A stretch of DNA of 64,000 nucleotides from Candidatus Nanopelagicales bacterium. GTDB taxonomy: Bacteria > Actinomycetota > Actinomycetes > S36-B12 > UBA5976. Position 1 is the first letter of the stretch; each line of letters begins with the position of its first letter. Of the stretch, positions 52,389 through 64,000 are shown piece after piece. The stretch is from contig JAOATY010000035.1 of assembly GCA_030157865.1 (NCBI GenBank), positions 13,356-77,355 on the forward strand, written 5' to 3'. A program made the translations under genes and the position numbers. The notes beneath the pieces were generated by a model that saw only the letters and a program-made list of their open reading frames with translations, had not been told where the DNA came from and searched no databases.

Positions 52389-53435
52389 ATGCGAAATTCA
52401 AAGTCTTTTCGAGTGCTGTCTAAAGTCCTAATAATTCTGGGAACTTTTGCCCTGACACTTGGTGCTTTTGCCGGAATCGTTAATAACAATCTCTTAAATG
52501 GCCCTAAGTTAGCTGACCACATTGAGAGCATTCGTCATGATCCAGCAGTTATAGCCAAGATGAGCGTTCAGCTGACTGATGTAGTTATTGAGAAGGCACC
52601 AAACGCTGCCCCGTTTCGCCCAGTCATTGAAAATGCTGCCTCAAAGATTTTGGCAAGTGATGCACTATCTGAACCTATTCGTGGCGCCGCAGTTCAACTT
52701 CGCGATGCATTCGTAAATGGTCAGGCACTAAAACTTGAGTTCACTGAAACTGCAAATGTTGCGATCGAAAAAGTTAACATGTTCGCACCACAGCTTGGAA
52801 TTGAACCAATTGCAGAGCTTAGTCTCGAGCCGCCAGCAGGCAGCATCTTGGCAACTATCAATACCCTTCAAACGGTATTGAAGATTTCTGACACCCTAGC
52901 TCTTGTGTTACCGATTGCAGCTGCGGTTTTATTTGTAATTGTTATCTTGCTTGCGCCGTATCGTCGCCAAGGTGCGCAACGCGTTGCAAAATCCGTGATG
53001 ATTTCAGGTGGCATCATCGCTGGTATCAGTGGCGCAATTTGGGTAGCAACAAATATCTTTGGTCGCGATCCTGAAATTGGCATTTATCTAATCGCTTCCT
53101 GGAATCAATTCGATGCTGCCTTCTGGATCCCGGCTGCAATTTTGATTGTTGCTGGCGGAATGGCTTACACCTTGCTTGGTGGAGTATTACCTGATGTTGA
53201 TGTGCCAAATGAAGTTGCAAAAACTTGGAAGAAGATTTGGGCTCGTCCAGTAAATGTTTGGGTTTCATTTGCTCGAGCCATCATCTTTGTCGCCCTTGGT
53301 GCGTTCATCGTTATGAATACCCAAGTGGCGTTACGTGGCTTGCTGTTTATTGGCTCGGCTTTAATGATCGCAACAGCAATTTTCGAATTCAATCGCCTGC
53401 TAGTTCGGTCGATTGAAAAAGAAAAAGTTAGTTAA
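52389..53435 (+). CDS. hypothetical integral membrane protein
   Basis: 348 aa with an N-terminal TM helix, a ~140-aa extracytoplasmic segment, then about 5 TM helices. No motif recognised. Its 3' end overlaps lysA convergently by 8 nt. Confidence 0.5.
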   Translation: MRNSKSFRVLSKVLIILGTFALTLGAFAGIVNNNLLNGPKLADHIESIRHDPAVIAKMSVQLTDVVIEKAPNAAPFRPVIENAASKILASDALSEPIRGAAVQLRDAFVNGQALKLEFTETANVAIEKVNMFAPQLGIEPIAELSLEPPAGSILATINTLQTVLKISDTLALVLPIAAAVLFVIVILLAPYRRQGAQRVAKSVMISGGIIAGISGAIWVATNIFGRDPEIGIYLIASWNQFDAAFWIPAAILIVAGGMAYTLLGGVLPDVDVPNEVAKTWKKIWARPVNVWVSFARAIIFVALGAFIVMNTQVALRGLLFIGSALMIATAIFEFNRLLVRSIEKEKVS

Positions 53436-54768
53436 CTCCAGCGTCATAAGCTAACAAGTCTTCAACTGTTTCTCGGCGTAGCAAGACTTGCGATGATCCA
53501 GCAGCAACACTTACGGCTGCTGGGCGTGGAATGTGGTTGTAGTTGCTTGCCATTGATCGGCAATATGCACCAGTAGCGGCAACTGCGATCAAATCCCCTG
53601 GACGAGTGTCTGCTGGAAGCTCAATATCCCGGACAACTATGTCGCCGCTTTCACAATGCTTTCCAACAACTCGAGAAAGCACTTTCTTTGCATCCGATAG
53701 CCGGTTTGCAATAACTGCTGTGTATTCAGCGTCATAAAGTGCGGTTCGGATGTTGTCACTCATTCCACCATCTACAGAGATGTAATGACGAGTAATTCCG
53801 CTATCCAGCTCAACTGGCTTAACAGTGCCAACTTCATAAAGCGTGATTCCAGGATTTCCAATGATTGCTCGTCCTGGTTCGACACTGATTTTTGGAACGG
53901 AGATGTTAACTCGAGCGCATTCCGTACGAACGATGTCCAAAATTGACTTGGCCATTGCGTTTACATCAAGCGGGTCATCGCCTTCAACGTATGCGATGCC
54001 CATGCCGCCACCAACATCTAGTTCGCTCACGGAAATTCCATGGCGTTCTTTGATTTGAACTGCGAAATCAACTACTCGATGAGTGGCTAATTCAAAACCA
54101 GTCGCATCGAAAATCTGTGAGCCAATGTGGGAGTGGAGTCCGGCAAGTGACAATGCGTTGCATTCCAAAACATTGTCTACTGCAGCCATTGCCATGCCGG
54201 AAGCTGTAGAAAGGCCAAACTTTTGATCTTCGTGTGCCGTTGAAATTGCTTCGTGAGTATGTGCTTCAACACCCACAGTTAGGCGTAGCAATACCTGCTG
54301 AACAATTCCCGCAGATGCTGCAACTGCATTCAATCTTTCAATTTCAATCAGACTGTCAATAACAATGCGGCCAACGCCAACTTCAACTGCACGTTCTAGA
54401 TCCTGAACGCTCTTATTATTTCCGTGCATCACAATCTGGCTTGGATTTAAGCCAGCGCGTAAGGCAACTTCTAGCTCACCAACGCTTGCAACATCGATTC
54501 CAAGCCCTTCTTGATTAACCCATTGCGCCACTTTTGTAGTTATGAAGGCTTTACCTGCGTAATGAACACTGGTTTCAATATCTGACGATGTAAAGGCAAC
54601 TACGTAATCACGAGCACGTTTGCGAACATCGGCTTCATCAAATACATAAAGTGGTGTTCCGTATTGCTTTGCAAGATCAGAAACGGAAACTTCGCCAATG
54701 GCGATTTCTCCTTGACCATTGCGAGTTGCAGAGGCTGGCCAAATTAATGGATTTAAGTCGGAAGCCAT
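53428..54768 (-). CDS. lysA: diaminopimelate decarboxylase
   Basis: Group IV decarboxylase: YAGKAF (PLP Lys), HIGSQI, GKHCESGD. Confidence 0.93.
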   Translation of the reverse strand: MASDLNPLIWPASATRNGQGEIAIGEVSVSDLAKQYGTPLYVFDEADVRKRARDYVVAFTSSDIETSVHYAGKAFITTKVAQWVNQEGLGIDVASVGELEVALRAGLNPSQIVMHGNNKSVQDLERAVEVGVGRIVIDSLIEIERLNAVAASAGIVQQVLLRLTVGVEAHTHEAISTAHEDQKFGLSTASGMAMAAVDNVLECNALSLAGLHSHIGSQIFDATGFELATHRVVDFAVQIKERHGISVSELDVGGGMGIAYVEGDDPLDVNAMAKSILDIVRTECARVNISVPKISVEPGRAIIGNPGITLYEVGTVKPVELDSGITRHYISVDGGMSDNIRTALYDAEYTAVIANRLSDAKKVLSRVVGKHCESGDIVVRDIELPADTRPGDLIAVAATGAYCRSMASNYNHIPRPAAVSVAAGSSQVLLRRETVEDLLAYDAGVN

Positions 54769-54770
54769 GA

Positions 54771-56456
54771 CTACATCCTGTCGGGTGCGCTAACACCCAG
54801 CAATTCAAGACCATTGAAAATGACTTGACGCGTTGCAGCACATAGCCAAAGTCGGGCAATGTTTAGTTCAGTAACTGGCTCATCACCTTGCGGCAAAACT
54901 CGGCACGCAGCATAGAACGAGTGGTAACTAGTGGCTACTTCCTCGATGTATCGCGCAATTCGATGCGGCTCACGAAGCTCGGCTGCTGAAGCAACTACCC
55001 GTGGGTAGTCAGCAAGTAGTCCAAGCAGAGCGCCTTCGCGATCATCAGTTAATTGCGATGGATCGAAGGTTGCTGGATCCCAATCGGATGTGTTCGCTGG
55101 AATTAATCCAAGTTCAGCCGCATTTCTTACAACCGAGGCAATTCGAGCGTGTGCGTACTGCACGTAATAAACCGGATTGTCGTTTGTGCTGGAAACCAAA
55201 AGATCAAGATCAAGAACTAGTGGTGAATCGACTGGGTAGCGAATCAATGAATAGCGAGCAGCATCAACGCCTACTTCATCAACAAGGTCTTCAAGTGTGA
55301 TGATGTTTCCAGCTCGCTTTGATAGACGAACTTCTTCGCCATTCTTGAGCATCTTTACCATCTGCCCAATCAGGATCTGAATGTTTTCATCTGGGTTATC
55401 GCCAGCACATGCAGCAACTGCGCGAAGTCGATTTACGTATCCATGATGATCAGCGCCGAGTAAGTAAATGCATAGGTCGTAACCGCGATTACGTTTGTCA
55501 ACGTAGTAAGCAGTGTCCGAAGCAAAATAAGTTAATGCGCCATCAGCTTTAATTAGCACGCGATCTTTGTCATCATCAAAATCACTGGTTCGCAGCCAAG
55601 TTGCGCCTTCTTCAACAAACATATGGCCCTGAGACTTTAACTTTTCAAAACCACGATCAACTGCACCTGAGGTGTGAAGCGATTTCTCGGAATACCAAAC
55701 ATCAAAGTGCGTATTGAAGTTATCTAGCACTCGCTTTTGGTCAGCGAGCTGCAATGCATAAGCGGCATCGCGAAATGCCTCGCCTCGTTGCGGTTCAGGC
55801 AGATCAGAAATTCCTGGATTTTCGGCAACTACTTGTTTGGCAAGTTCTGGAATGTACGCGCCGTGATAACCATCTTCAGGAATTGGTTCACCTAACGCAG
55901 CAGCCTTTACCGAATTTCCAAACTTATCCATCTGGACACCAAGATCGTTGATATAAAACTCACGCGCAGATTCAGCGCCTTCTGCTTCAAGGACTCGAGC
56001 AATTGCATCACCAACTGCTGCCCAACGCGTGTGACCTAGATGCAAGGGGCCAGTTGGGTTTGCTGAAATAAACTCAACGTTTATTTTTTTGCCAGCTAAT
56101 TGAGTACCACGACCAAATTCTTTTCCTTTGGCAATAATATCTCTGGCTAACTCGCCTTGGCTGGCTGCATCCAAACGAAGGTTTATGAAACCTGGGCCGG
56201 CAATTTCTACTGCTTCTACACCCGGAAGTGCAGCAAGAAGTGGCTGCAATATTTCGGCAGCAGCGCGAGGATTTAGTCCGGCTTTCTTACCTACCTGCAT
56301 GGCGACATTTGTGGCCCAATCGCCATGATCTAGGTTCTTTGGACGTTCAACCACAATTTCAGTTGGGACATCTTCGGTAGCTAAATTCAATTGACCACTG
56401 GAAATTGCGCCAAGCAATGCAGCCTTAATGTGGCCAGCTAATTCCTGAGGGGTCAT
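54771..56456 (-). CDS. argS: arginine--tRNA ligase
   Basis: HIGH-type ANPTGPLHLGHTR, an RLSKRAGN (KMSK-like) motif and a C-terminal DALR anticodon-binding domain. Confidence 0.95.
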   Translation of the reverse strand: MTPQELAGHIKAALLGAISSGQLNLATEDVPTEIVVERPKNLDHGDWATNVAMQVGKKAGLNPRAAAEILQPLLAALPGVEAVEIAGPGFINLRLDAASQGELARDIIAKGKEFGRGTQLAGKKINVEFISANPTGPLHLGHTRWAAVGDAIARVLEAEGAESAREFYINDLGVQMDKFGNSVKAAALGEPIPEDGYHGAYIPELAKQVVAENPGISDLPEPQRGEAFRDAAYALQLADQKRVLDNFNTHFDVWYSEKSLHTSGAVDRGFEKLKSQGHMFVEEGATWLRTSDFDDDKDRVLIKADGALTYFASDTAYYVDKRNRGYDLCIYLLGADHHGYVNRLRAVAACAGDNPDENIQILIGQMVKMLKNGEEVRLSKRAGNIITLEDLVDEVGVDAARYSLIRYPVDSPLVLDLDLLVSSTNDNPVYYVQYAHARIASVVRNAAELGLIPANTSDWDPATFDPSQLTDDREGALLGLLADYPRVVASAAELREPHRIARYIEEVATSYHSFYAACRVLPQGDEPVTELNIARLWLCAATRQVIFNGLELLGVSAPDRM

Positions 56457-56513: not shown

Positions 56514-57161
56514 CTAAGGTTTCTTGATTACCTGACTTACAACGGATACCGAGTTTTCGCGGTGGGCAGCCTGGAGCGCAACCGATTTCTCGACATCCCT
56601 TGCCCTTAGCGCTGCAACCATGGTTCGGTGCTCTTGATTCATGTGAGCAAGGTTGGTTGGGGCCGCAAAGTAAACACCTCTATATGCATCAGTTGCATCC
56701 CACTGGTTCTTGATGAGGCGAACAAGTCGAGGCATGTTGCTTGCCTCAAATAAAGCGAAGTGGAATCTGCGGTTTGCAGCTGTCACTGCCGATACATCCT
56801 GAGATTTGGCAGCAGCTTCCACGTCATTCAATATGTCTTCGAGATACTCAACGTCTTCGTCAGTGAGCAATGGCACTCCGACGCGAATTGCTTCGTCTTC
56901 AAGAAGTGAGCGAATTCGATAGACCTCAACTAAATCGTCAATGCTTAGATCTGCAACGAAATAGCCGCGATGTGGATGATAAGTAACTTGGCCTTCGCCT
57001 TCAAGGACCTTAAGAGCTTCGCGCAATGGCACCCGACTTACGCCAAGGCTTGCAGCCAATGAATCTTGAACGACTTGCTGACCAGGTTCAAGTTGACCGG
57101 ATGCAATTAAAATTCGAAGTTCGCGAAGCACGCCTTCTTGCGCAGTTACGTTTTCGCTCAT
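56514..57161 (-). CDS. GntR family transcriptional regulator, FadR/FCD subfamily
   Basis: N-terminal wHTH (LAASLGVSRVPLREALKVLEGEG) and an all-helical FCD C-terminal domain. Its start overlaps the upstream CoA-transferase stop by 4 nt. Confidence 0.8.
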   Translation of the reverse strand: MSENVTAQEGVLRELRILIASGQLEPGQQVVQDSLAASLGVSRVPLREALKVLEGEGQVTYHPHRGYFVADLSIDDLVEVYRIRSLLEDEAIRVGVPLLTDEDVEYLEDILNDVEAAAKSQDVSAVTAANRRFHFALFEASNMPRLVRLIKNQWDATDAYRGVYFAAPTNLAHMNQEHRTMVAALRARDVEKSVALQAAHRENSVSVVSQVIKKP

Positions 57162-58267
57162 TCTTCATCCAAACTTGGTGGCGCTACGGCATAGCGAACT
57201 GGCGTTTGTGAAAACGTAATTGGGTTTGCAACCTGTTTACGCGCTTCGCCTTCTTGATTGATTGTGATGATCGGATTTAACTCCAAAGATTCAGCCAGAG
57301 CGAACGCTTCAGATATTGAATTGATTGGACCGCATGGAACTCCAGCACTTGAAAGTAGCTTCCACCAATGGTCAGCGCCATTACCTAGGAACTGCTTTAC
57401 CAATAACTCATTGAGCTCAACTCGATTAGCTACTCGATCAGGATTTGTTACGAACTTCGGATTGGATGAAACTTCCGGAATTCCAAGTTCTTGGCAAAGT
57501 TTTGCAAACTGACCATCGTTACCAACTGCCACAACAATTGGTCGATCTGATGTTTGGTAAACCTCGTAAGGACTAATTGATGGATGCGCATTTCCTAAAA
57601 TTCCAGGAACAACATCACCAGAAACAAATGAGCTTGCTTGATTCACCATGGCAGAAAGCAACGAAGACAAAAGGTTGACTTCGATTTGCTGACCTTCACC
57701 CGTAACGTTTCGGTGATTTAAGGCTGCTAACAATCCGATAGTGGCATGCATTCCAGTAATTACATCTACTAATGCAACGCCAACTTTTGTTGGTTCACCG
57801 GGCGCTGGACCGGTCACGCTCATCAAGCCACCCATGGCTTGAACTAACAAGTCATAGCCTGGCATTGCAGCCCCAACGCCTGATCCAAATCCAGTAATCG
57901 AACAATAGATAACGTCAGACTTCAAATTCTTTACGGACTCATAATTCAAACCAAACTTCTCACTGTTGCTTGGTGGGAAATTGTGAATGACGATGTCTGC
58001 CCGCTTAATAAGTTCATGGGCTTCTGCCAAACCAGCTGGGTTAGTCATGTCTATTGCAACGGATGTCTTGTTTCGATTTACCGACTCAAAGTAGGTAGCT
58101 CTGCCGGCAGCGTCATAAGGCGGACCCCAGTGGCGAGTATCGTCCCCAACTTCTGGGCGCTCCACCTTTATTACTGTGGCGCCCATATCGCCGAGCAACA
58201 TAGTTGCGTATGGGCCAGCCAAAACTCGAGTGAAATCGGCAACGACTATTCCGTCTAATGGACCCAT
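57158..58267 (-). CDS. family III CoA-transferase (CaiB/BaiF/Frc-like)
   Basis: N-terminus GPLDGIVVADFTRVLAGPYATMLLGDMGATVIKVE.P and a catalytic Asp region (GVALVDVITG). Confidence 0.85.
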   Translation of the reverse strand: MGPLDGIVVADFTRVLAGPYATMLLGDMGATVIKVERPEVGDDTRHWGPPYDAAGRATYFESVNRNKTSVAIDMTNPAGLAEAHELIKRADIVIHNFPPSNSEKFGLNYESVKNLKSDVIYCSITGFGSGVGAAMPGYDLLVQAMGGLMSVTGPAPGEPTKVGVALVDVITGMHATIGLLAALNHRNVTGEGQQIEVNLLSSLLSAMVNQASSFVSGDVVPGILGNAHPSISPYEVYQTSDRPIVVAVGNDGQFAKLCQELGIPEVSSNPKFVTNPDRVANRVELNELLVKQFLGNGADHWWKLLSSAGVPCGPINSISEAFALAESLELNPIITINQEGEARKQVANPITFSQTPVRYAVAPPSLDEE

Positions 58268-61021: not shown

Positions 61022-61678
61022 TTATCCTTGGTCTCGCCCAACCACAGCTTCAAGTGCCTGCGTAATTGCATCGCGTGCCTTTGTGACACTTTCAGTTGAT
61101 CCGCTCATGTAAACGCGACCAGCTGCGCCAATCATTTGCACATCTACAAGAGTTACGTCAGGAGCAACTTTTTCAGCTTCGTTCGCCGCAACTGTGGCAA
61201 AAAGTGCTGGGGTCATTTCATAAACCAACAGAGACTCGCCTGGCATAACCATCGACGCTTGACGATTTCGATTAAGAATGATCGCGTGCTGATCGGTTAT
61301 GTTCTCGATGATGTCGCTGTAAAGAATGCGAGGACGCAATTGATCGGATGCAGAGGCATTTATTCCGTCAAGAATCGCCTGACCAGCTCGTTTGACTAAT
61401 TCGATATCGGAAGCGTGAACTTCCAAGACCCCGAATTGGCGTTCTACGAACAAAATGCCAGGTTCAACTTCAGGTACCGACTTAAGCGCCAAGTCAATTA
61501 CTCGCTCGATCGCAAGCCCGGGTGCCACCTCAATGATCAACGAGTGCTGACCACCGTAAGGAGGGTAACCACGGGCTCGCGTCGGCGTGCTCATGTAAGC
61601 AGCGAATTGCTGCTGGAGCTCTTCAACAAGCAAGTAGACGCGTAGTTCGGGCCCTGCTACGAGCGGGCCCGTACTCAC
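61022..61678 (-). CDS. tandem-BMC-domain shell protein (BMC-T-like), paralog 1
   Basis: 218 aa with two BMC-like halves (IIEVAPGLAIERVIDLALKS... and VYEMTPALFATVAANEAEKVA...). It is a paralog of 62799-63398. GTG start in a GTGA overlap with the BMC-H stop. Confidence 0.8.
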   Translation of the reverse strand: MSTGPLVAGPELRVYLLVEELQQQFAAYMSTPTRARGYPPYGGQHSLIIEVAPGLAIERVIDLALKSVPEVEPGILFVERQFGVLEVHASDIELVKRAGQAILDGINASASDQLRPRILYSDIIENITDQHAIILNRNRQASMVMPGESLLVYEMTPALFATVAANEAEKVAPDVTLVDVQMIGAAGRVYMSGSTESVTKARDAITQALEAVVGRDQG

Positions 61679-61959
61679 GCGGACTCGCCTACTTTAAAGA
61701 ACTTGTTTAGTTCTGCGTGCGGACGTGGAATTACGTGCTGTGAAACTAGTTCGCCAACCTGGTTAACTGCTTCAGCGCCTGCATCAGTAGCAGCCTTAAC
61801 TGCGCCGACATCGCCCACGATGACTACAGCTACAAGGCCGTCGCCAACTTCTTCACGCGCAACAATAGTTACATTGGCTGCCTTAACCATGGCATCTGCA
61901 GCAGCAACAGCAGCTACATATCCCTTAGTCTCGATCAAGCCCAGTGCGTTGCTTGACAT
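61675..61959 (-). CDS. BMC-H hexameric shell protein (PF00936 type, PduA/EutM-like)
   Basis: ALGLIETKGYVAAVAAADAMVKAANV ... GDVGAVKAATDAG ... GELVSQHVIPRPH, a canonical BMC domain. Strong SD AGGAGA. Confidence 0.92.
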   Translation of the reverse strand: MSSNALGLIETKGYVAAVAAADAMVKAANVTIVAREEVGDGLVAVVIVGDVGAVKAATDAGAEAVNQVGELVSQHVIPRPHAELNKFFKVGESA

Positions 61960-62041: not shown

Positions 62042-62311
62042 CTAGGAAGCGCTGTGCTTCCCAGAACTCTTAGTGTTCTCATCGATTGATCCAATGATGA
62101 GAGCGTCAATTGGTGGTGTAACATCTGGGAACCAAGAGGCTGCGACCGAGCCAGTTGAAACCAAAACGCTTTCGCCAATTCCGGAACCTAGAACGTCAAA
62201 GGCAACTAAATGTGCGCCACCTTCAACTTCGACTTCGAGAAAAGCCCCATTGGGAATCTCGGTTAGACGACGGGTCGCCCATACATTGCCGATGACTCGC
62301 GCTTTTAACAT
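62042..62311 (-). CDS. BMC-P pentameric vertex protein (EutN/CcmL family)
   Basis: 89 aa: MLKARVIGNVWATRR ... LVAFDVLGSGIGESVLVSTGS.A, a typical EutN/CcmL pattern. Confidence 0.88.
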   Translation of the reverse strand: MLKARVIGNVWATRRLTEIPNGAFLEVEVEGGAHLVAFDVLGSGIGESVLVSTGSVAASWFPDVTPPIDALIIGSIDENTKSSGKHSAS

Positions 62312-62799
62312 CAGCGCATCACCGATCCCTTCTGATTGTCTTGTTGACCTTCTCTAATAATCGTTACCCCTAGATCGCGAGCTTTATCGCGCGCTAATGA
62401 TGTAACGACTACCTTTCGAGCCACGATCAAAGTTGATCCTGACTCGGCAGCTTTTCTGATTGTTGATTCGGTTACGGCACCTTTATCAATACGTGTTGTT
62501 CCTGAATCTTGCTTCGAGTTTGCAACGGATCCATTGCCTAACTGAAAAACAAGTTCTCCTTGGCGCATAGCATTTAGCGTTTTTGCGTCTGTCGCCAAAT
62601 CAAGAATGCGATTTACAAAGTTAGTGACATCTAAATTGCTTCCTAGAGATACAACTTCAATTACCTGAGCCGGCTTTGATGATTGTTGAGTTTGACTAGA
62701 AAGCGCTTGTGCAGCACCGCGGATGCCATCGGGACCACCAAGGGCATCGCGTAATGCTTCGCGCACTAGCGATCTCAACATTTCATTATCAGTTGACAT
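62311..62799 (-). CDS. microcompartment-associated protein of unknown function with N-terminal encapsulation-peptide-like helix
   Basis: 162 aa with an amphipathic NEMLRSLVREALRDAL, a Q/S-rich linker and then a ~110-aa domain. It shares 1-nt overlaps with both flanking shell genes. Confidence 0.6.
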   Translation of the reverse strand: MSTDNEMLRSLVREALRDALGGPDGIRGAAQALSSQTQQSSKPAQVIEVVSLGSNLDVTNFVNRILDLATDAKTLNAMRQGELVFQLGNGSVANSKQDSGTTRIDKGAVTESTIRKAAESGSTLIVARKVVVTSLARDKARDLGVTIIREGQQDNQKGSVMR

Positions 62800-63398
62800 T
62801 AACGTTCACTCAAAACCTTTTCAGCAACTTCTGCTGCAGCGCGAACGTTGGCTTCTTTGCCCGACAGATAAACGCGGCCAGTGGCGCCGATCATTCGGTA
62901 GTCAACAACCTTTACATCAGTTGCCTTCTCCGCTTCATTGGTTGCCAAGATTGCGTATGACGCAGGCTGAACTTCCAAAATGTATAGGGACTCGCCAGGC
63001 AAAATCATGGATCCAACTTTGTTCCTATTGATAAGGAATGCGTGCTGCTGATCGACAGACGGCACAACTCGAGATGCCAAGATTTTGGGTTTTGTTGCTT
63101 CGGCTTCGGTAGCACCTAAAGCAGCTAGAACGGCTTGTCCGGCAGCGCGAACTTCTTCAGTTGGTCCATGAATTTCTAAATAACCAAAAGTTCTTTCAAC
63201 AAAAAGAATTCCGGCTTGGACGTTTGCATGCTTTAGCGCGACGTCAGTAAGCGCCTCAATGTCAAGACCAGGGGCAACTTCAATAACTTGCGCTGCCATA
63301 TTTGCGCGCGGCAAAGCTCCCTTAACCCATGAACCTAGGTAGCACATGGTTTGTGGTTGCATTTGGTCGATGTAGATGAACGACCGTAGCTCTGCCAT
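62799..63398 (-). CDS. tandem-BMC-domain shell protein (BMC-T-like), paralog 2
   Basis: 199 aa: VIEVAPGLDIEALTDVALKHANV..., and a second half ILEVQPASYAILATNEAEKATDV... Confidence 0.8.
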   Translation of the reverse strand: MAELRSFIYIDQMQPQTMCYLGSWVKGALPRANMAAQVIEVAPGLDIEALTDVALKHANVQAGILFVERTFGYLEIHGPTEEVRAAGQAVLAALGATEAEATKPKILASRVVPSVDQQHAFLINRNKVGSMILPGESLYILEVQPASYAILATNEAEKATDVKVVDYRMIGATGRVYLSGKEANVRAAAEVAEKVLSER

Positions 63399-63415: not shown

Positions 63416-64000
63416 TTAGTTCTTGATCAATGCGTGAAGTTCTTCAACAATTAACTTGCGTATTTCGTCTCTTAGTTCAGCTACATCTTGCGTAATTGGT
63501 TCGCGACGAATACTTGTGCTTCCAAAGCCATAGTTTTCTTCGTTAGAAGCAACTGGATAAGAAGGTACTGGTCCGGTTGGACTTGACCACGGATTTAGTC
63601 CCGCATACGACGGCATAACTTCTCGTGCATCAGCGTTATATGCCAAGCGGGTGTAGTTGATCAAATGCTTAGGCTGCAAATTCTCGCCAACCGAAGAGCG
63701 ACCAGCAAAACCGGTTCCGATAGTCATAGTTGGAGCCAGGTTCGTTTGAATTCCAGAAGCGCCAAGGCTGTTGCCAACATTTACAGAAACTCGAAGAACT
63801 GGAACTGCTGCACTGAACATCATTATCAATTCAGGATTAGCGCTGTGGATTGCAGCTGAGTGACCAGCACCAGTTATGCGCAATACCGCACGGGCAATAT
63901 CAATTCCTCGTGTTGCAGTTGGCACTCGAACGAAACCTAATACCGGACATAGCTTTTCGTGAGCTAAAGGTTCTTCAGGTACAACTAAATCAAATGGCGC
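63416..64000 (-). CDS. aldehyde dehydrogenase (EutE/PduP-like, probably CoA-acylating), C-terminal part; 5' end outside window
   Basis: The frame stays open to the window edge (APFDLVVPEEPLAHEKLCPVLGFVRVP precedes the listed GTG). It has an ALDH C-terminal region plus a linker and a terminal amphipathic helix DVAELRDEIRKLIVEELHALIKN. Confidence 0.82.
   Translation of the reverse strand, partial: APFDLVVPEEPLAHEKLCPVLGFVRVPTATRGIDIARAVLRITGAGHSAAIHSANPELIMMFSAAVPVLRVSVNVGNSLGASGIQTNLAPTMTIGTGFAGRSSVGENLQPKHLINYTRLAYNADAREVMPSYAGLNPWSSPTGPVPSYPVASNEENYGFGSTSIRREPITQDVAELRDEIRKLIVEELHALIKN

Follow-up and report, generated by a model that had tools for sequence, protein, structure and literature searches.

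A probable PduM/EutQ-like shell–cargo adaptor encoded between the shell genes of an RMM/AAUM microcompartment locus

How the enzymatic core of a bacterial microcompartment (BMC) is attached to its shell is a central question of microcompartment assembly, and the answer is needed for re-engineering these compartments as nanoreactors. For the RMM/AAUM type, crystal structures exist for all four shell proteins and the pathway enzymes have been studied; to our knowledge, no linker has been proposed so far. Here we describe a 162-residue protein encoded between the shell genes of an RMM locus in a 64,000-nucleotide stretch of Candidatus Nanopelagicales DNA (assembly GCA_030157865.1, contig JAOATY010000035.1, positions 13,356 to 77,355), hereafter the window, to which all coordinates refer. 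This protein, the target, is probably a non-enzymatic structural adaptor, that is, a PduM/EutQ-like shell–cargo linker of the RMM/AAUM microcompartment. We favour this reading because the target joins the operon's own cargo-targeting helix to a domain of about 45 residues that is found in the PduM and EutQ linkers; its binding partners and its role in assembly are what we infer from this architecture.

The closest described systems are the linkers of the ethanolamine and Pdu compartments. In Salmonella, residues 1-99 of EutQ are required for encapsulation (PMC12487888). Within this region, helices H1/H2 (residues 9-41) associate with the shell, a flexible region follows (42-61), and helices H3/H4 (62-99) have micromolar affinity for the encapsulation peptides (EPs) of EutC and EutE; deletion of the N-terminal regions leaves the shells apart from a polar cargo aggregate (PMC12487888). 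Pull-down experiments located the EutM interaction within the first 100 residues (PMC4827028). Gram-positive EutQ proteins lack the first three helices, and the characterisation of the EutQ N-terminus, in 2025, was made without a family context (PMC12487888).

PduM is the second case. Its deletion causes partial separation of core and shell, with enlarged or aberrant compartments (PMC9132943). Residues 1-23 function as a signal sequence and accompany the core, the ΔssPduM variant mimics the full deletion, and no homologues outside Pdu are known according to the authors (PMC12108088). Cargo–shell bridging through a short helix or peptide plus a second module has likewise been proposed for CcmN, CsoS2 and PduB(1-37) (PMC12487888, discussion). 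The first two belong to carboxysomes and far exceed the target in size, and PduB(1-37) extends a shell tile; no sequence relationship between these three and the target was detected, nor is one claimed.

The target gene and the modules of its product are as follows.

62311..62799, minus strand: target gene, ATG start, 162 aa; by its position in the RMM locus, presumed counterpart of MSMEG_0274
62740..62790, minus strand: N-terminal amphipathic helix, residues 4-20 (…EMLRSLVREALRDAL), putative RMM-type EP, from AlphaFold2, hydrophobic moment, conservation and motif
62671..62739, minus strand: flexible low-complexity linker, residues 21-43, of low pLDDT (the AlphaFold2 per-residue confidence) and variable length
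62530..62670, minus strand: orphan middle module, residues 44-90, predicted β-α-α-β from AlphaFold2 secondary structure
62350..62502, minus strand: C-terminal β-α-β-α-β domain, residues 100-150 (KGAVTE…VVTSLARDKARDLGVTIIRE), proposed docking domain, from homology
62311..62349, minus strand: disordered tail, residues 151-162 plus stop (GQQDNQKGSVMR), pLDDT <50

The open reading frame is real and its sequence is exactly that quoted in an earlier, sequence-only reading of this DNA. That reading had described a short amphipathic helix at residues 5-20 (nt 62740-62787), a low-complexity linker and a domain of about 110 residues. AlphaFold2 was run twice, with 21 and 77 aligned sequences, and returned the same secondary structure with moderate confidence (pLDDT 65-66, pTM 0.3), the larger alignment bringing no gain in confidence over the first. 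The model has a helix at 4-19, a weak helix at 22-37 and then a disordered stretch; in the middle region, a strand at 45-51, helices at 55-68 and 72-79 and a strand at 83-88, followed by disorder at 90-99; and in the C-terminal part, a strand at 101-104, a helix at 111-120, a strand at 123-126, a helix at 134-143 and a strand at 147-149 before the disordered tail. The linker, of low complexity, was confirmed at residues ~21-43. The region called a single domain divides into the modules 44-90 and 100-150, with the low-confidence segment 90-99 between them and the tail 151-162 behind. Conserved residues lie in the N-terminal helix (L8, R9, V12, R13, L16, R17, L20), in the middle module (V50, L52, V62, L66, G81, F85, L87) and in the C-terminal domain (K106, G107, T110, E111, A117, G121, T133, A136, D138, A140, V145), the last of which is predicted with a pLDDT of 69-79. 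As a separate observation, the terminal residue R162 (window 62311-62316) is arginine in at least 90% of aligned homologues, which end in …VMR or …EKER, despite the predicted disorder of the tail.

The N-terminal helix has the features of the EP class: it is an amphipathic α-helix of about 15-20 residues at a protein terminus, a flexible linker of low conservation connects it to the remainder, and it resembles the EP of a cargo enzyme of the same compartment type. The 4-19 block is predicted with a pLDDT of 74-78, and within the protein the hydrophobic moment peaks in the 14-mer at residues 6-19 (0.71, a value reached by 1.4% of 20,000 shuffles). Across 77 sequences, positions 8, 11, 12, 15, 16, 19 and 20, an a/d-type pattern, are hydrophobic in 86-100% and R9, R13 and R17 are arginine in 95-100%. 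The linker has a pLDDT <50 at residues 37-44, and its length varies among homologues from ~10 to >100 residues, with PT/PS-rich insertions. Of 80 target homologues, 76 have the motif h-R-x-x-h-R-x-h-h in their N-region; among the 73 acylating aldehyde dehydrogenases (AldDh) from the same loci, 67 have it within their final 32 residues. The background is ~0.003 per 32-residue window in 17,133 six-frame ORFs. This common motif argues, at the level of sequence, that the target carries the same targeting element as AldDh, the EP-bearing cargo enzyme of the locus. The earlier assignment of an amphipathic helix with the character of an encapsulation peptide is thereby supported. The idea that the target EP and the AldDh EP are complementary in charge found no support, both being near neutral to slightly acidic.

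The helix could also be read with the opposite polarity. According to the classical PduP-PduA model, the N-terminal helix would bind the shell and the C-terminal domain would bind cargo or oligomerise, the protein still being a linker. EPs have been reported to contact the helices of shell proteins (cited in PMC4827028), and the strict conservation of R9, R13 and R17 suggests one fixed partner surface. Nevertheless, PduM(1-23)-GFP follows the core and not the shells once the two are uncoupled (PMC12108088), EutQ lacking residues 9-41 remains with the cargo and loses the shell (PMC12487888), and the target EP motif is that of a cargo enzyme. We hold this reversed arrangement to be quite improbable.

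Comparison of the C-terminal domain with curated profiles pointed to the ethanolamine and Pdu operons. Residues 96-148 weakly match the last 45 positions of the NCBIfam model TIGR02536 ('eut_hyp'); all 21 members of the first alignment matched this C-terminus (best E 3e-5), always within profile positions 161-205 of 207, and the whole-protein score of 20 bits stayed below the membership cut-off of 152.6. The PduM model was touched by four of the 21 members, in one of which residues 124-153 corresponded to profile positions 132-161 of 162, and the EutQ model NF012001 by only two of the 21 (E 0.02).

Profile alignments were then made against E. coli reference sequences, EutQ and EutT from K-12 and PduM from E24377A. 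With hhalign, a 30-sequence profile of the C-terminal domain aligned to EutQ residues 2-47 of K-12 (probability 83.9%, E 7.8e-6), and the 77-sequence family profile aligned to a 22-sequence PduM alignment (probability 89.4%, E 2e-6), target residues 117-150 corresponding to PduM 129-162, its last 34 residues. The PduM C-terminal segment …VTALAR[ED]AA…IQLIKQE is recognisable in the target, and the domain corresponds in sequence to the H1/H2 segment of EutQ, whose binding property it may share. The hidden Markov model score of EutQ(1-60) was 18.3 bits, compared with a maximum of 11.6 in 20,000 shuffles, and that of the PduM C-terminus 16.8 bits, compared with a maximum of 14.6; none of the 20,000 shuffles reached either score. 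A six-frame scan covered 1.38 Mb, made up of the window, all loci and the eut and pdu regions of E. coli; outside the family, only PduM (0.012) and EutQ (0.016) fell below E 0.1. When the C-domain profile was searched against an index of 5.8 billion proteins, the 120 proteins listed all belonged to the family and were unnamed or carried only generic or inconsistent source names. The likeness to small eut/pdu-associated proteins that the sequence-only reading had suggested at low confidence was correct.

Pfam leaves terminal segments of both EutQ and EutT uncovered. The N-terminal ~48 residues of EutT (K-12 eutT, locus L081, 23503-24306, minus strand), outside the Pfam adenosyltransferase domain, show a weak likeness to the C-terminal domain (hhalign E 0.0066; HMM score reached by 4 of 20,000 shuffles), and HMMER did not recover this segment in the six-frame ORF scan. 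We regard the likeness, a matter of sequence, as real but weak; the segment could be the means by which EutT associates with the compartment.

By the curated profiles the target lies outside the PduM, EutQ and TIGR02536 families, and by alignment it has one domain in common with all three. The likeness to PduM extends to overall size (163 aa against 162 aa) and to the fact that neither protein is a shell tile or an enzyme. Both begin with an EP-like amphipathic helix, a putative signal sequence in the target and an experimentally functional one in PduM(1-23), and their N-termini are colinear in hhalign, not confidently aligned. The C-terminal ~35-48 residues run …VTALAREAA..RNIQLIKQE in PduM and …VTSLARDKARDLGVTIIRE in the target. 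The two proteins differ in that the target has no match to PF15953 at E<=0.1, scores 16 bits against NF011957 (cut-off 179) and 12.3 against TIGR04493 (cut-off 50), has an unrelated middle region, and is encoded between BMC-T and BMC-P in an RMM operon, with no PduL or diol dehydratase in the locus. In EutQ, as in the target, a domain, a flexible linker and EP-like amphipathic helices are combined, the target domain aligning to the shell-binding H1/H2 segment. However, the order is reversed, EutQ running dock, linker, helices and the target helix, linker, (middle module), dock; and the C-terminal cupin/acetate-kinase domain of EutQ (PF06249) is absent from the target. TIGR02536 is also an uncharacterised BMC-operon protein, of Firmicute-type (EUT2) ethanolamine operons, whose C-terminal ~45 residues match; with 207 positions, the profile exceeds the target in length, and no match extends into its first ~160 positions.

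The middle module has the consensus V.V.L..D..L..FV.R.L.LA.DP..R..L..GRL.F.L and was found in 247 of 267 family sequences. Its interpretation as a second copy of the C-terminal domain or as a counterpart of the PduM middle region was rejected, no match being found in the comparison. The module is missing from the short forms. In this subfamily of ~100-116 aa, two tandem copies of the helix motif and a linker are followed by the C-terminal domain only, as in P0101-P0120; P0111 lies at 8001-8324 of L083, a canonical high-GC RMM1 locus. EutQ(1-99) is built of the same modules in the opposite order: a dock domain first, then a linker and two amphipathic helices.

These data bear on the possibility that the target is an accessory cargo with a biochemical role, binding a small molecule, cofactor or nucleotide, that would offset missing phosphotransacylase (PTAC) and alcohol dehydrogenase recycling and use its EP only for entry. 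The sequence-only reading had offered such a missing cofactor-handling component as one of two options, the other being a scaffold or nucleation factor. RMM loci indeed lack recognised enzymes for CoA and NAD+ recycling (PMC4207490), the middle module is an orphan, and the layout of helix, linker and domain is also found in cargo enzymes. On the other hand, the target matched no enzyme or cofactor-binding family in Pfam, NCBIfam or the PDB. It had no Pfam match of any kind at E<=0.1, and whether the query was the whole protein or a profile of its C-domain or of its middle domain, sequence searches of the PDB gave chance or designed-repeat matches only, in keeping with the earlier remark that no catalytic motif could be recognised. 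Moreover, the short forms retain only EPs and a C-terminal domain of ~50 aa, and the only detectable relatives of that domain are non-catalytic segments of PduM and of EutQ, in the latter outside the cupin. Because of the absence of an enzyme or cofactor match and the minimal short forms, we disfavour a role as accessory cargo and regard it as unlikely; the cofactor-handling proposal found no support. The scaffold or nucleation factor was the better of the two suggestions, PduM and the EutQ N-terminus being experimentally shown linkers (PMC9132943, PMC12108088, PMC12487888).

The genomic setting was examined next, with the following neighbours of the target gene.

63416..64000, minus strand: acylating aldehyde dehydrogenase (AldDh), 3' part, running off the window
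63419-63487, minus strand: AldDh C-terminal encapsulation peptide DVAELRDEIRKLIVEELHALIKN, last ~23 aa, at the end of the AldDh gene
62799..63398, minus strand: BMC-T, double-stacking, CcmP-like, 199 aa, upstream neighbour; PF00936, NF053796, PF27545 CsoS1D_N
62797..62801, minus strand: TAATG, upstream BMC-T stop (TAA) and target ATG, 1 nt in common
62309..62313, minus strand: TGATG, target stop (TGA) and BMC-P ATG, 1 nt in common; predicted translational coupling
62042..62311, minus strand: BMC-P (EutN/CcmL pentamer), 89 aa, downstream neighbour; PF03319, E 2e-17
61675..61959, minus strand: BMC-H hexamer, 94 aa; PF00936, E 7e-27
61022..61678, minus strand: second BMC-T (CcmP-like), 218 aa; NF053796, E 1.4e-59

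The target itself has neither a BMC domain (PF00936) nor an EutN/CcmL domain (PF03319) and is not a shell tile. In AldDh, the EP DVAELRDEIRKLIVEELHALIKN is preceded by a long P/S-rich linker; the complete gene, seen in locus L084, encodes 523 aa. Downstream of the shell genes, the window contains genes for an APH-family kinase, a short-chain dehydrogenase/reductase (SDR) and a GntR/UTRA regulator. The RMM operon (Aminotran_3, AldDh, BMC-T, X, BMC-P, BMC-H, BMC-T, APH kinase, SDR, GntR) is thus represented here, and it is visible in full in L084 and L083. On contigs encoding the identical protein, AA-permease stands beside Aminotran_3, AldDh, BMC-T, target, BMC-P, BMC-H, BMC-T and kinase, in this order. 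According to PMC4207490 and the supplement of PMC8217296, the locus is an RMM1/AAUM amino-alcohol (aminoacetone) microcompartment locus. For M. smegmatis, the BMC catalog family table (PMC8217296 supplement) lists msmeg_0271 and msmeg_0275 as BMC-T, msmeg_0272 as BMC-H, msmeg_0273 as BMC-P, msmeg_0276 as AldDh and msmeg_0277 as aminotransferase, and contains no entry for msmeg_0274. Because the synteny is invariant, we place the target family in the MSMEG_0274 slot, an assignment inferred from gene numbering and synteny. No mention of 'MSMEG_0274' or 'MSM0274' was found in the searched literature.

Several observations concern the surroundings of the operon. A complete microcompartment operon in the Candidatus Nanopelagicales (freshwater acI-type) lineage is itself noteworthy. 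In RMM loci of the Nanopelagicales type (L003-L022), a gene for a family III CoA-transferase follows the GntR/UTRA regulator (window 57158-58267, minus strand); it is absent from the high-GC RMM loci and may represent lineage-specific CoA handling for a compartment type without phosphotransacylase. The genes argS and lysA adjoin the locus (window 53428-56456, minus strand). Next to the RMM locus lies a gene for an FmdA/AmdA-type amidase, in the Nanopelagicales-type L084 (128-1171) as well as in the distant high-GC L083 (12269-13291); it may be a conserved accessory gene of the RMM pathway.

Conservation of the target gene was assessed in several ways. An indexed search gave 133 close homologues, none with an informative functional name. 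An exhaustive profile search of 1.84 billion representatives reached 999 at E<=1e-3, each standing for a cluster at 50% identity; 142 of them passed E<=1e-30. In a scan of one genome per species, relatives were found in 221 species genomes, the closest being Candidatus Nanopelagicales metagenome-assembled genomes (MAGs). The proteins of the window were mapped onto the 80 returned loci, and the order AldDh, BMC-T, target, BMC-P, BMC-H, BMC-T was kept in all 80, wherever the flanks were present. These loci span Actinomycetota (including Pseudonocardia, Nocardioides and Janibacter), Alphaproteobacteria, Verrucomicrobiia, Acidobacteriota and Gemmatimonadota, the loci outside Actinomycetota coming from Alphaproteobacteria and from a MAG each of Verrucomicrobiia, Acidoferrum and Gemmatimonadota. 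A tblastn search of plasmids gave no match. Conservation of the ORF across RMM-type loci, which the earlier reading had proposed as a check on its idea, was therefore borne out in 80 of 80. A spurious or fast-evolving filler ORF between shell genes might have been suspected, since the protein is a 'hypothetical protein' in every source, cluster look-up of the family returning that name only, and has no entry in the BMC catalog family table. The 999 clusters, the 221 species genomes in five or more phyla, the invariant residues and the conserved synteny refute this suspicion, and we set it aside.

The position next to the pentamer gene raised a further alternative, in which the target acts mainly on BMC-P, as a chaperone or by recruiting or limiting it, and so controls shell closure and size instead of fastening the core to the facets. 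The 1-nt overlaps with shell genes at both ends of the ORF, described in the sequence-only reading, were both seen. Of 79 homologous loci, 63 have the same overlap of target stop and BMC-P start; in the others, except L065, the two genes are spaced by -7 to +8 nt. The slot directly upstream of the pentamer gene is also that of pduM, in the order pduL, pduM, pduN in E. coli E24377A, and of CD1921 in C. difficile, where eutD (PTAC) is followed by CD1921, of 'unknown function', and eutN (PMC3483176); CD1921 is plausibly a TIGR02536 protein. In addition, compartments of ΔpduM strains are enlarged or elongated (PMC12108088, PMC9132943). However, gene adjacency may merely set dosage. EutQ, with the homologous domain, is not encoded next to eutN in E. 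coli and binds EutM/EutL, not EutN (PMC4827028, PMC12487888), and the dominant phenotype of ΔpduM is separation of core and shell (PMC9132943). We consider a vertex or closure factor not very likely.

We return to the shell–cargo adaptor. Since the target has the parts of the known linkers, namely an EP-like helix, a flexible linker and a domain of ~45 residues, we propose it as a core–shell tether. Its invariant place within the shell operon and the slot that it has in common with pduM and CD1921 agree with this reading. In this model, the N-terminal EP would embed the target in the EP-mediated cargo core together with AldDh, as suggested by its sequence and by the behaviour of PduM(1-23). 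The variable linker would give reach, and the C-terminal domain would, by homology, dock on the shell from inside, either on its inner face or on a shell-protein extension. Core and shell would thus be tied together during assembly. With its translation coupled to that of the upstream BMC-T and the downstream BMC-P, the target would be made in small amounts, in proportion to the shell. A second contact or self-association may be the contribution of the middle module, which is dispensable in the natural short forms; these have a second EP copy instead.

Several points weigh against this model. The homology to PduM and EutQ spans only 34-45 residues, at hhalign probabilities (84-89%) below 95%. 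Aligned directly, PduM and EutQ gave no match (E 0.15), so that the link between them depends on the target family as an intermediate. The EutQ side of the comparison is a single sequence; its N-terminal profile is not diverse because a metagenome scan with EutQ yielded only EutQ at 95-100% identity. The middle module has no relatives in the PDB, in PduM or in the target C-terminal domain. Furthermore, when PduB(1-37) is missing in Salmonella, PduM goes with the cargo, and its association with shell assemblies is not significant (PMC9132943). Because of this behaviour, the body of PduM may bind the N-terminal extension of PduB rather than shell tiles. PduM is reported to work with that extension, and RMM loci have no PduB-type shell protein, so the partner of the domain in PduM may be a shell-protein extension that RMM lacks. 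Finally, the family is known from sequence alone. The target is best described as the RMM/AAUM version of the metabolosome shell–cargo linker.

Within the searched literature, the assignment of the target's unannotated family, the identity of its EP motif with that of AldDh, and the sequence bridge from the PduM C-terminus to the shell-binding EutQ N-terminus appear to be new. The gene of the MSMEG_0274 type, as a PduM/EutQ-like adaptor, is a direct and testable candidate for the RMM/AAUM linker. More tentatively, and with doubt and belief about balanced, tipping slightly to doubt, we suggest that the ~45-residue β-α-β-α-β module is an unrecognised, widely shared metabolosome shell-docking domain, combined each time with EP-like helices. 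In PduM (PDU), TIGR02536 (EUT2) and the RMM family the module would be C-terminal; in EutQ and probably EutT (EUT1) it would be N-terminal. If so, one modular principle, an EP helix, a flexible linker and a dock domain in either order, would underlie core–shell attachment in at least four compartment types, with the RMM family as the sequence bridge that brings the shared domain to light and connects the findings on PduM and on the EutQ N-terminus. In Gram-positive Eut systems, TIGR02536 may then stand in for the EutQ helices that are missing there, and the domain would offer, besides EPs, a portable tag of ~45 residues for shell targeting.

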